A stretch of 64,000 nt of DNA from Verrucomicrobiia bacterium. GTDB taxonomy: Bacteria > Verrucomicrobiota > Verrucomicrobiia > Limisphaerales > UBA1319. The stretch lies in assembly GCA_963664225.1 (NCBI GenBank), contig OY760937.1, positions 1,184,001 to 1,248,000 of the forward strand, written 5' to 3'. This document shows, piece after piece, positions 25,279-54,927 of the stretch; the stretch's first letter is position 1; each line of letters starts with the position of its first letter. Both the position numbers and the translations under genes were made by a program. Under the pieces are notes generated by a model that ran no database searches, had not been told where the DNA came from, and worked only from the letters and a program-made list of their open reading frames with translations.

Positions 25279-25354
25279 GGGCGATTGGCGCAGCGGTTAG
25301 CGCGTCTGCTTTACACGCAGTAGGTCGGGGGTTCAAATCCCTCATCGCCCACCA
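25279..25354 (+). tRNA. tRNA-Val (anticodon TAC)
   Basis: Acceptor GGGCGAT/ATCGCCC, anticodon loop TTTACAC, GTTCAAATC T-loop, encoded CCA; 76 nt. Confidence 0.96.
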
Positions 25355-51526: not shown

Positions 51527-52189
51527 ATGCAAGAACCGATTGTGATTGCCATCGATGGCACCAGTGCCAGCGGCAAGAGCACCAATGCGAAATTGGTGGC
51601 TGCCGCCATGGGTTTCACCTATGTGGATACGGGGGCGATGTATCGCACCCTGGCTTGGTATTGTTTGAAGAACAATATCAGTGTCGATGATGGCCAGGCG
51701 GTCGCCAATGCTTGTCGGCGTTGGAAGACCAAACTGGTTTGCGAGGCTAGGCAGGTGAGACTTTTGGTCGATGGCTACTATCCGGCAACCGAAATCCGGA
51801 CCTCCGAAACGAGCGCCGCCGTGGCTCGAGTGGCCGCAGTTCCCAAGGTGCGGGAGTGGATGAAGAAGAAGCAGCGCGAATGCGCTCTCTTCGGCGATCT
51901 GGTGATGGAAGGCCGGGATATTGGTTCCAATGTGTTTCCCGAAACCGATTATAAATTCTACCTCGATGCAACCTTGGGTGAACGTTCCAGACGGCGCGAA
52001 GCCGAAGGCGTGCTTGAAAATCTGGCCGAACGCGATAAACGGGACAGTCAACGGGCGACCGCTCCATTAATGATCCCGCTGGGGGCCATGGTGATCAATA
52101 ACTCCGACATGACTTCGGAGCAAACGAGCGCATTGATCATTGCCGAGATGAAACGTCGGTTGACCGCGGAGGGAGGCCGCTCCCGGTGA
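51527..52189 (+). CDS. cmk: Cytidylate kinase
   Basis: IAIDGTSASGKST, DTGAMYR, VMEGRDIG, RDKRDSQR. Confidence 0.94.
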   Translation: MQEPIVIAIDGTSASGKSTNAKLVAAAMGFTYVDTGAMYRTLAWYCLKNNISVDDGQAVANACRRWKTKLVCEARQVRLLVDGYYPATEIRTSETSAAVARVAAVPKVREWMKKKQRECALFGDLVMEGRDIGSNVFPETDYKFYLDATLGERSRRREAEGVLENLAERDKRDSQRATAPLMIPLGAMVINNSDMTSEQTSALIIAEMKRRLTAEGGRSR

Positions 52190-52836
52190 GTAGGGGCATG
52201 AACTTGAGTTACACGATCGGGTGGCATTGCTTTCGCGCCATTTTGCTCGTGTACTTTCGATGGAAAACATACAACTATGAGCGTGTTCCGCTAACCGGTC
52301 CGGTCATTCTCGCCTCCAGCCACACCAGTTTTCTCGATCCACCCCTGGTGGGGGTGGCCATTCACCGGACCATCAATTATCTCGCTCGCGAGTCCCTCTT
52401 CCGATTTCCGATCATGGGGTGGGTATTGCGTTCGTGGAGTTGCGTTCCGGTGAATCGGGAAGGTGGAGGCGCTTCCGGTCTTAGGGCGATTCTGGATCGC
52501 CTGCACCGCGGAGGAGCTATTTTACTGTTTCCTGAAGGCACCCGATCCCCTGATGGAAAGCTGCAACAGGCCCGTGCCGGCGTGGGTTTAACGGTCATCA
52601 AATCCAGCGCTCCAGTCATTCCTGTGCGGGTGTTTGGCACTTATGAGGCGTATGGCAGGCATATGGTAATTCCCAGGCCCTACCGGGTCGCCGTCAAATA
52701 TGGCCACCCATTGGATTTCAAGGCCCTTCGGGCGGAAGCGGCGGTATGCGATAAACCGCGTTTAAAGGCGATTCACCAACAGGTGGCCGATGAAATCATG
52801 GCGGCGATCGCCGCCTTGCAGCCCGGATGGGATTGA
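52186..52836 (+). CDS. plsC: 1-acyl-sn-glycerol-3-phosphate acyltransferase
   Basis: HTSFLD (HX4D), FPEGTRS; GTGA overlap with cmk. Confidence 0.88.
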   Translation: MSRGMNLSYTIGWHCFRAILLVYFRWKTYNYERVPLTGPVILASSHTSFLDPPLVGVAIHRTINYLARESLFRFPIMGWVLRSWSCVPVNREGGGASGLRAILDRLHRGGAILLFPEGTRSPDGKLQQARAGVGLTVIKSSAPVIPVRVFGTYEAYGRHMVIPRPYRVAVKYGHPLDFKALRAEAAVCDKPRLKAIHQQVADEIMAAIAALQPGWD

Positions 52837-52920
52837 CTGGAGCTGCTCCAAATAGAGGTTCAAGCAGGGCGTGCAGTCAGCCGCCGTCCGTGATCAGGAC
52901 GCACATCAATGCGGTCCTTT

Positions 52921-53565
52921 GTATGATCGGGTCGGGTGCCAGGGATTTCGCCCCGGCACCCTCCCACACCACCGGACGTGCGGTTTTCTCGCATCCGGCG
53001 GTTGGAACATTCAGAGTTCTTCCTTCCCAGTCGTGCAGACATGTGACCCCGGAATACTTCGACGGGTTGGGCGCTTCCAGCGTTGGGCCCGCCGTTTGCC
53101 AGTGCCAGGATGGTAACCGTAATTGTTGCGTCCTGTTGCTTCATTCCATCACTCGTCCTCATGTCCAACGCCTTGGTTGGCTCCGTTTGTTCCTTCGGCC
53201 CTTCGCTCCTCCCGGCTTTCACCGGGCCTCATCACTACTATGGCCTCTGCTGACTTCTGTCCCGCTCTCACGGGACAGATCTCTCTGGGTCGGTATTGAC
53301 TCTGTCGGCGCGCGCCGCCGGGCTCTACCTGATGCGTTTGGATGACCTTTGGGTTTCGCCGTTACTCGCCAGCTAACCCACGCACCCGGCCTCACTGCCC
53401 GTTCGTGTTCCTACGGTCGCGCCTTTGCTCTCGGCCCTTTCGCGTCCGACCCTCGCGGATCGAACCTGGCCTACCGCTACGGTTGGCGTCACCGCCCCCG
53501 TTGGGCTCCTTTCATCCCAATAGATCCAATACCTGCCAGACACACGAGTCCCGGCTTCAGCCGGG
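52921..53565 (+). repeat. REP-like palindromic element split by the intron (left piece 52921-52925, right piece 53546-53565)
   Basis: Removing the intron rejoins GTATG|GAGT-CCCGGC-TTCA-GCCGGG: a short conserved-looking foot plus GC hairpin, with no poly-T tail. Confidence 0.6.
52926..53545 (-). mobile_element. ORF-less class IIC group II intron (620 nt)
   Basis: Minus strand: 5' GUGUG; IIC-type DII/DIII junction AGAAGUCAGCAGAGGCCAUAGUAG...AGCGAAGGGCCGAA; DV ACCGCCGGAUGCG-AGAAAAC-CGCACGUCCGGUGGU with CGC triad (52968-53002); DVI stem with A at -7 (52932) and 3' end CCGAU; no RT ORF fits in the ~190-nt DIV. Confidence 0.9.
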
Positions 53566-53650
53566 GCGGCCATCGCATCGCAGAAGCGCTGGAAGTCGGC
53601 CATCCCCTCGAAATTCAAATTCCCGCTGAATGCTCCCCCCATCTTCCGTG

Positions 53651-53746
53651 CAACCCGGAACGGGTTGTAATCATTCAGACCCGGGTTGCCCGCCGAGGGC
53701 TACCCGGGGTCCCACGTCCCTCAGAAGTCCAACGCTGTAGGCGTTG
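53651..53746. repeat. Cluster of three short palindromes (second REP/BIME-like unit)
   Basis: CAACCCG-GAA-CGGGTTG; CCCGGGTTGCCC-GCCGA-GGGCTACCCGGG; CAACGC-TGTAG-GCGTTG. Confidence 0.6.
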
Positions 53747-53821
53747 AATCAAATCCCATTCCCATCTGACTAGCGTTTATCAATTGTCAATTATCCATTC
53801 ATCATTCCCATTATCCATTCA

Positions 53822-54808
53822 TCAAGGAGCGTCCTGATCCAATTCCGAGGTTTTCATTTGAGCGGCCTCGAGCTTTATGTAATTAAGGAGGACGGGGGCA
53901 AGAATCATTCCCGTAATGCCCATGAGCCTTTCACCGACAATCAATCCAATAAGCGTGAGCCAGACCGGGTTGTTGATCCGTTCCCCAATGATTTTGCTGT
54001 TCAGAAAATACTCAAGTTTGTGAATCGTGATCAGGAAGGCCAGAGCCCAAAGAGCCAGGTTGGGGCTGACCGTGAAAGCGACACCGACGATGATTGAATT
54101 GCTGATCAAATTCCCGGCAATGGGTACCAATCCACAAAAGAACGTGGTGAGAATGACCAATGGGCCGAAAGGAAGGTGCGCGATCAGGATAAATATTGAG
54201 GTTAATCCGGTATTGATGGTGGAAATTGTTAATTGGGCGCCCATCACGGTTTCGAAGGATTCGTAAAGAGCGCGAAATCGATTGGCAATCTCGCTGGATG
54301 AGGCGGTATAAATATTGTTCTTGATCCGATAATTTCTACGGTTCAGATCCATCGCGGGACTTAGAAAAATGCTCACCGAGCCAACGATGCCGATAAGCAG
54401 AAATACGCATTGTTTTGCAGTCGCTTTGGCAAAGACAAAGATACTTAAGAACTGAAGCTCATTCTTCGCGTAATCCATGGTGAATGCCTTCAAGCTGATC
54501 ATATCCGTGAATGGAAGTTCCATTCCATGATCGCTGGCGAATTGGATGATCAAGGGAACTGCGGTGGCAAAAACCTTTGGCAACGTCTTTGCCGCATGAT
54601 CCACAAAATAAATCATCAGCGCGCCAACGATCGTAACGATGGCAATGTAGGCGCTGATGGTCAGCCACTTGTAACGCAATACCGTCAGTTTATTGAGGAC
54701 AAAGTAGCAAAACAGGGTGGTGATCAATAGCGTGCCCAACCCTCCCCATCCTGCGAGAACCAGAACTGCCCCGAGCAAAATATATGAGTTGCGCTTCGAC
54801 GATGTCAT
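53822..54808 (-). CDS. AI-2E family transporter
   Basis: Multi-TM; AQLTISTINT, LVPIAGNL, IHKLEYFLNSKIIG, GMILAP. Confidence 0.85.
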   Translation of the reverse strand: MTSSKRNSYILLGAVLVLAGWGGLGTLLITTLFCYFVLNKLTVLRYKWLTISAYIAIVTIVGALMIYFVDHAAKTLPKVFATAVPLIIQFASDHGMELPFTDMISLKAFTMDYAKNELQFLSIFVFAKATAKQCVFLLIGIVGSVSIFLSPAMDLNRRNYRIKNNIYTASSSEIANRFRALYESFETVMGAQLTISTINTGLTSIFILIAHLPFGPLVILTTFFCGLVPIAGNLISNSIIVGVAFTVSPNLALWALAFLITIHKLEYFLNSKIIGERINNPVWLTLIGLIVGERLMGITGMILAPVLLNYIKLEAAQMKTSELDQDAP

Positions 54809-54927
54809 TGCAGGCCGACTGTAGCATAGTGGCTTTGCAAAAACAATGAAATGTGGTCCGCTTGCAGGAATCAGGGACCGCCAGCGCACTGTAAGACGTT
54901 TGACATAAACAGTTAATGGGGTTTTGA

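Follow-up and report, generated by a model that had tools for sequence, protein, structure and literature searches.

The stretch of DNA analysed here (the window) comprises 64,000 nucleotides from the genome of a Verrucomicrobiia bacterium (contig OY760937.1), and our subject is a 620-nt group IIC intron without an open reading frame (ORF), which lies in a convergent intergenic gap between genes for an AI-2E family transporter and an acyltransferase. The intron stands behind a short hairpin that belongs to a multicopy repeat resembling the repetitive extragenic palindromic (REP) sequences of other bacteria. A sequence-only reading of the window had proposed that the intron homes to this repeat, guided by pairing between its exon-binding site 1 (EBS1) and the intron-binding site 1 (IBS1) at the end of the 5' exon, and the computational analysis described here followed up that proposal. 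Positions are window coordinates unless prefixed G000, which denotes the whole genome of the window, a single 5.78-Mb contig. The features at the locus are as follows.

52926..53545, minus strand: ORF-less group IIC intron, 620 nt (Rfam RF02001 and RF00029; sister copies)
53294..53462, minus strand: domain 1 to 4 core of the intron (RF02001, 84.7 bits, model positions 1-170 of 170)
52926..53003, minus strand: intron domains 5 and 6 (RF00029, 44.7 bits, full model)
53010..53187, minus strand: 178-nt segment of domain 4 (intron positions 359-536), with no counterpart in sister copy D
53364..53367, minus strand: EBS1, GAGU, terminal-loop positions 3-6 of a domain 1 stem-loop (Rfam alignment)
53546..53549, minus strand: IBS1, ACUC, the final four nt of the 5' exon (EBS1 complement; covariation)
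Arms 53565-53560 and 53555-53550, loop 53559-53556, minus strand: target hairpin in the 5' exon, with a 6-bp stem and a 4-nt loop (direct reading; RNAfold)
52921..52925, minus strand: start of the 3' exon, CAUAC, whose first C is the presumed IBS3
53546..53624, minus strand: family-1 repeat module upstream of the insertion (blastn of the 300-nt flank)
53650..53759, minus strand: module X, a multicopy palindromic module (dozens of blastn matches in the genome)
53822..54889, minus strand: upstream co-oriented gene, AI-2E family transporter (ORF; Pfam PF01594, 55.8 bits)
52186..52836, plus strand: downstream convergent gene, acyltransferase (ORF; Pfam PF01553, 88.2 bits)

Both parts of the ribozyme score above the Rfam gathering cut-offs (32 bits for RF02001 and 40 bits for RF00029). 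On the minus strand, the intron begins with GUGUG at 53545 and ends at 52926, and no reverse-transcriptase ORF is present in its 620 nt, based on the ORF list and a pairwise alignment with copy D (see below). The coordinates that had been given earlier for the hairpin, ACUC, CAUAC, and GAGU are all exact to the base. The proposal that GAGU is the EBS1 for ACUC is borne out by its position in the Rfam model and by covariation among relatives: GAGU occupies an 8-nt loop on a 4-bp stem, nested inside a further stem, which is the <<<<________>>>> element of the model. A 4-nt complement alone would be expected at chance level, so the EBS1 call rests on its covariation with the exon. When the region 52700-53800 was compared with four public contig sets, two of them (X1 and X2) contained the occupied junctions, and none gave a joint that skips 52926-53545.

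To place the window intron within its genome, we searched the G000 contig with the intron by blastn, which yielded four copies.

Copy A (window): G000 1236926-1237545, minus strand, the reference
Copy B: G000 3175532-3176151, 620 nt, 100% identity to the window copy
Copy C: G000 1795259-1795878, 620 nt, 99.7% identity; 2 of 620 positions differ from A and B
Copy D: G000 2134364-2136242, 1879 nt, bearing an intron-encoded protein (IEP); it matches intron positions 1-358 and 537-620 at ~98.7%

The copy D protein is 416 aa long, contains RVT_1 and GIIM domains, and scores 404 bits against TIGR04416. In the PDB, the GsI-IIC reverse transcriptase (RT) is the top match (2.8e-144), and neither an endonuclease domain nor anything else beyond RVT_1 and GIIM was matched in the 416 aa. 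Group IIC introns are recognised in part by a class C RT-maturase, which the window copy, having no IEP, lacks and its sister copy D carries. Based on the type of RT-maturase in copy D, we assign the lineage to class C (IIC) and regard the window copy as a non-autonomous derivative. We also considered whether the ORF-less copy could be a simple deletion of the resident copy D; this is excluded, because 178 nt of its domain 4 (D4) lack a counterpart there. A blastn search of G000 with this D4 segment returned no match apart from the ORF-less copies. Besides the four copies, there are two solo 3' fragments containing domains 5 and 6 (D5/D6), one at G000 5031161-5031249 (92% identity), which abuts an inverted copy of module X, and one at G000 3429273-3429331 (minus strand, 85%). 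These may be 5'-truncated insertions or deletion remnants.

The hairpins behind which the four intron copies are inserted, always at the same offset, belong to two multicopy extragenic repeat families. In copies A and C (family 1), a hairpin with a 5-6-bp stem is followed by ACUC, the intron, and CAUAC; in copies B and D (family 2), the order is GTAA, a 7-bp stem, GCUC, the intron, and CGAAG. The earlier reading had named sister introns behind ordinary terminators with unrelated flanks as one finding that would count against it, and what we found instead is copy C in family 1 and copies B and D in family 2. In RNAfold predictions, the window's target stem stops 4 nt short of the insertion site, and the hairpin ends 4 nt ahead of the site in three of the four copies; the fold of copy C pairs through IBS1. 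GAGU forms four Watson-Crick pairs with ACUC and three plus a G-U pair with GCUC. The first base of the 3' exon is C in all four copies, in 60 of 61 empty family-2 sites, and in 18 of 18 empty family-1 sites. Two empty copies, at G000 2138211 and 2140584, have flanks identical to those of copy D over the 30 nt that precede the site and the 25 nt that follow it. The comparison of occupied and empty paralogous sites thus shows a precise insertion without target duplication.

Multiple copies in repeated DNA could also be produced if the intron were copied along with its repeat unit, by recombination or by a REP-associated tyrosine transposase (RAYT), rather than by retrohoming. The repeats are amplified in tandem, and the copy D region lies within a larger duplicated segment, both of which fit such passive co-amplification. 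However, the 620-nt introns are 99.7-100% identical and their flanks only ~80-90% alike. Near-identical introns in diverged flanks point to separate recent insertions and not to co-amplification. Furthermore, the copies are divided between two families that are unrelated, and no intron occupies the duplicated paralogues of copy D's site or any array unit, which together make co-amplification barely credible.

Family 1, defined as the hairpin plus ACUC, has 20 copies that match the exact pattern, 18 of which are unoccupied. The next bases at these empty sites are CATAC (12), CAAAC (4), and CATGC (2). Allowing up to two mismatches gives 32 copies, including stem variants with compensating changes. 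A single-copy rejoined site, which the earlier reading had also named as counting against it, is thus not what the genome shows, in support of homing to a REP-like repeat. Nine of the 32 copies fall in an open frame of at least 200 codons, compared with 86% of the genome (a crude ORF proxy rather than annotation). The family-1 21-mer is also present in three genomes from other families of the order, in 5, 2, and 1 copies. The genome G012 contains five family-1-like 21-mers as well as intron D5/D6 pieces at 90-95% identity; a match to D1-D4 was not found within the three stretches of it that were examined. No GTAG-type tag is present on the 5' side of the family-1 palindrome.

The sequence upstream of the window intron is a mosaic of repeats. 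Positions 222-300 of the 300-nt 5' flank match four further places (81-87% identity), with exact matches to the final 19 nt at ~12 places; the upstream 250 nt consist of module X, then a short module, then family 1. The same module order follows a Y1 gene elsewhere in the genome (G000 3202504-3202957), with a family-1 copy ~260 nt after that gene. This gene, which encodes a 150-aa Y1 transposase, is flanked by inverted copies of module X (3202083-3203060) in a TIRtron/REPtron-like arrangement. Module X copies are partly arrayed, with periods of ~237 and ~615 bp. Family-1 hairpins also occur in higher-order tandem repeats at G000 1960461-1964543 (~817-bp period) and 3669992-3671779 (~595 bp), each unit of which contains two family-1 hairpins ~243 nt apart.

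Family 2, the hairpin plus GCUC, has 63 occurrences, 61 of them unoccupied, and CGAAG comes next at 47 of the 61. Tolerating up to two mismatches raises the count to 98 copies, most of them in 85-bp tandem arrays. They form 25 clusters, with as many as 18 units in an array, and the units of an array run head-to-tail on one strand. By the same crude proxy, 17 of the 98 copies are in a frame of at least 200 codons, compared with 86% of the genome, so that both families are depleted in long open frames. Tandem Repeats Finder resolved one array into 18.1 units of 85 nt with 95% matches. The family-2 22-mer has 68 copies in G000 and none in the 20 relatives searched, and reversed-pattern controls for both families gave no matches. 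The 85-bp arrays are located at G000 3271747-3273279, 1978640-1979269, 1989504-1990460, 3241769-3242554, and 3292310-3293007 (one has a 76-bp unit), and each unit contains the family-2 hairpin and a second stem. A CRISPR interpretation of these arrays was ruled out, as the whole unit is 95% conserved and variable spacers are absent. An Rfam search of the 85-bp array and a family-1 cluster gave no family at gathering score.

The genome contains nine Y1_Tnp (PF01797) matches. One ORF of 269 aa (G000 3015632-3016438, minus strand) is identified as a RAYT by the NCBIfam model REP_Tyr_transpos NF047646 (99 bits, cut-off 80), and the sole relative of its product in the PDB is E. coli TnpA-REP (4ER8, 3e-9), in an alignment that includes the HUH and Tyr regions. 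Six family-2-type hairpins flank this gene, five upstream and one downstream, all of which are GTAA-tagged and on the gene's strand. The suggestion of a linked RAYT thus applies to family 2 rather than to family 1, the family of the window copy: both families are REP-like, and strictly only family 2 is RAYT-linked. The family-2 tag is GTAA rather than GTAG, and its palindromes are arranged head-to-tail, not in inverted REPIN/BIME pairs. The earlier description of the insertion as splitting the foot of a REP is loose, since the GTAG-like tag of family 2 is on the other side of the hairpin.

Another explanation is that the hairpins are functional terminators without a tail that happen to be repeated, with the intron still homing to terminators. 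IIC introns are described as classically following terminators (PMC12584367), and co-oriented ORFs end ~100-280 nt upstream of copies A and C. However, neither family has a U tract in its empty-site sequences, and a pattern scan of 52700-53950 found 0 terminator-like sites, in agreement with the earlier observation that the target lacks a U tail. The head-to-tail arrays of family 2 (up to 18 units) and the family-2-type hairpins around the RAYT gene also argue against terminators, as does the absence of family 2 from the 20 relatives, which is the pattern of a mobile repeat and not of a conserved signal. We consider tail-less terminators very unlikely.

To assess how general this targeting is, we examined related introns. 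Of 60 other genomes sampled from the order, 9 contain related intron sequence (10 of 61 if G000 is counted). Relatives of the IEP number more than 600 in species-level genomes, with the closest (58-77% identity) in metagenome-assembled genomes (MAGs) of Verrucomicrobiota and Acidobacteriota. The 5' boundary could be placed at 26 of the 33 closest loci which, with the four copies from G000, gives 30 sites. At every one of these, a hairpin is predicted whose end lies 0-7 nt ahead of the site, and all have at most two U within the last 6 exon nt. The loop tetramer (positions 3-6) varies among the introns and matches each intron's own last four exon bases. The 15 distinct EBS1/IBS1 combinations average 3.67 of 4 pairs, compared with a mean of 2.46 +/- 0.22 in shuffled combinations, and 0 of 10000 shuffles reached the observed pairing; five relatives without an EBS1 by the loop pattern were omitted from the 15. 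To estimate exon copy number, the last 60 nt of the 5' exon were searched in each relative's own genome (seven genomes), with the following numbers of matches.

G061: at least 65
G048: at least 57
G064: at least 40
G062: at least 38
G049: 6
G063: 1 (single-copy)
G065: 1 (single-copy)

The flanking 5' exon is thus multicopy in five of the seven other genomes tested, and many of the repeat copies in G061 and G048 form close inverted pairs. For G048, we built an alignment of 10 empty copies, one occupied 5' junction, and two occupied 3' junctions. The occupied junctions correspond to the two halves of the repeat, such that the intron lies between two hairpins. In 6 of the 10 empty copies, the IBS1 position reads GCCA, the exact complement of the G048 EBS1 UGGC, which had been read from the loop alignment before the empty copies were aligned. 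G048 provides a second, independent case, in which both the repeat and the EBS1 differ from those of G000. Its genome has five Y1-type loci, one of which contains an internal TAG, may be broken, and is preceded by a repeat copy ~150 nt upstream; we dropped a RAYT link in this genome, as ~0.5 such hits are expected by chance. The intron copies in G048 end contigs.

Two other relatives contain introns of unusual form. In G049, at least eight IIC introns of ~600 nt lack an ORF and are identical in their ribozyme parts. Their EBS1 is ACAA and their 5' exons end in UUGU; an IEP-bearing copy was not seen within the stretches examined. On contig C63 of G056 (~405-723 of the stretch), a ~320-nt miniature intron-like element lies behind a hairpin and includes the 5' end, part of domain 1 (D1), and D5/D6 (RF00029 score of 38.1, compared with the gathering score of 40).

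The matched EBS1 sequences could reflect specialisation on repeats or, alternatively, opportunism, in which an ordinary IIC intron takes any stable stem-loop followed by a matching tetramer, the repeats are merely the commonest such sites, and EBS1 has not been shaped by them. We scanned G000 for perfect hairpins (stem of at least 5 bp, loop of 3-8 nt) followed by [AG]CTCC and found 408, of which 88 (22%) are within the two families. Under equal use of all sites, the probability that four of four insertions are in family sites is (88/408)^4 = ~0.002, a value to be read with the caveat that the target definition was set post hoc, after the data had been seen. The other 320 sites of this kind, 25 of them with stems of at least 7 bp, favor opportunism, as does the use of two target hairpins that are unlike in stem and loop, a difference that agrees with generic shape recognition as well as with specialisation. 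The number of insertions is also small, with just four compared with at least 79 exact empty sites, which suggests that the intron is not aggressive. Among the relatives, one in G009, from the taxonomic family of the window genome, is located behind a classical U-tailed terminator with a matching A-rich EBS1, and the 5' exon is single-copy in two of the seven genomes (G063 and G065). The link to the repeats and their transposase has its own weak points: the RAYT link is with family 2 only, and the hairpins flanking the RAYT gene, which have ACUC or UCUC in place of GCUC, are in direct and not inverted orientation. Finally, the D4 segment of the ORF-less copies did not come from copy D, which means that trans-mobilisation by the copy D IEP is assumed. 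All of these points weigh against specialised homing to REP-like repeats. On the other side, opportunism alone does not readily account for four of four insertions in families that make up 22% of candidate sites, for a G048 EBS1 that is the exact complement of another repeat's consensus, for multicopy exons in most of the other genomes tested, or for a U tail in 0 of the 30 sites examined. We therefore regard simple opportunism as unlikely, although it is the strongest of the alternatives.

Altogether, the window element is probably a non-autonomous group IIC intron that retrohomed into a REP-like extragenic palindromic repeat. According to the literature on IIC introns (PMC10190682; PMC12584367), the ribonucleoprotein (RNP) recognises the shape of a structured stem-loop in single-stranded DNA, to which it binds, and in addition reads one IBS3 base and a 4-bp EBS1-IBS1 helix. 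In the case of the window intron, read-through from the co-oriented upstream gene would transcribe the ribozyme, and the RT-maturase of copy D, the single IEP-bearing copy, may bind it in trans. The RNP would then recognise the single-stranded DNA stem-loop by its shape, together with the 4-bp EBS1-IBS1 helix and the one-base IBS3 (C), and reverse splice directly behind IBS1, possibly with priming at replication forks. Of this scheme, our data show the ribozyme, the hairpins, the EBS1-IBS1 pairing with its covariation, the empty paralogues, the repeat families, and the RAYT. The two repeat families offer at least 79 exact empty sites in non-coding DNA to an intron whose EBS1 is tuned to the conserved post-hairpin bases; in G048, a different EBS1 is tuned to a different repeat. 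With respect to replication, the cumulative GC skew of G000 rises near-monotonically and is flat from ~1.5 to 3.7 Mb, with no V shape and no clear origin or terminus.

A broader interpretation, which we offer tentatively and to which we give slightly less than even credence, is that there is a coherent IIC clade in soil and sludge Verrucomicrobiota and Acidobacteriota that has left terminators and lives on host-specific REP/RAYT-type repeats. EBS1 would co-evolve with each host's repeat consensus, and ORF-less derivatives would spread in trans through arrays of safe sites, making the intron a "parasite of a parasite." The earlier suggestion that the lineage was retargeted, away from terminators, is an inference on direction.

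Several known systems share parts of this picture. Like the terminator-inserting IIC introns (B.h.I1, GsI-IIC, and the E.r. intron), the window intron has a compact ribozyme inserted directly 3' of a DNA stem-loop, a 4-bp EBS1-IBS1 pairing with a single-base IBS3, and, in sister copy D, an endonuclease-less RT-maturase. Unlike those introns, its target has no U tract and is found in multicopy REP-like repeats, its GC-rich IBS1 directly adjoins the stem, and the window copy lacks an ORF. The IIC-attC introns of integrons, for which S.ma.I2 is the type name, are likewise a IIC sub-lineage on a repeated, structured, non-terminator site of another genetic element. However, the targets here are not attC sites but cassette-free 85-bp tandem arrays and mosaic clusters, the 85-bp period is too short for cassettes, and the linked gene is a RAYT and not an integrase (no integrase search was made). 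ORF-less group II introns are mobilised in trans in Thermosynechococcus. The present introns are similar to these and to those of Trichodesmium in that ORF-less copies outnumber one ORF-bearing copy with a near-identical ribozyme, but the cyanobacterial introns are of the IIB/CL type and those described here are IIC with a 178-nt D4 segment. Mobilisation in trans is reported for Trichodesmium dnaN in PMC12584367, and PMC7923331 mentions the IIC-attC class.

REP sequences have served as landing sites for mobile elements before. In the table of Tobes and Pareja (2006; PMC1525189), a group II intron of P. putida KT2440 is listed with 2 of 9 copies REP-associated. That is a minority of copies, with no mechanism given in the table, whereas here four of four copies are in such repeats, EBS1 is matched to them, and other genomes repeat the pattern. 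Di Nocera et al. (2013; PMC3733652) described GTAG-tagged palindromic repeats, REP, and RAYT/TIRYT, in a paper that makes no mention of introns. Our families resemble those repeats as short GC-rich extragenic palindromes that are tandemly repeated with flanking DNA and have a flanking Y1 (RAYT) gene; they differ in that the tag is GTAA, not GTAG, and the flanking copies are direct, not inverted. Beyond the 2006 table, our literature search, which left some key IIC papers outside its reach, did not find IIC homing into REP/RAYT repeats.

The mechanism is known, and the outcome is expected from shape-based targeting; the novelty lies in the systematic picture. Every copy in the genome stands in one of two repeat families, most copies are ORF-less, two genomes have an EBS1 tuned to the consensus of the repeat, and related introns in two phyla use tail-less multicopy targets. 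A retroelement that recognises the shape of DNA plus four bases can gain dozens of harmless, self-renewing sites if four bases of its loop are tuned to another repeated element, which links two classes of selfish DNA, the IIC introns and the REP/RAYT repeats. This widens the accepted list of IIC targets (terminators and attC) and matters wherever such introns are annotated and their boundaries set in GC-rich soil bacteria without U-tailed terminators. The natural EBS1/target pairs, GAGU with ACUC/GCUC here and UGGC with GCCA in G048, are also a resource for testing the rules of structured-DNA recognition. In addition, such repeats and introns break short-read assemblies, as seen in the contig ends of G048. 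Elsewhere in the window, there is a tRNA gene at 25279-25351 (RF00005, 69.2 bits), which bears no relation to the intron.

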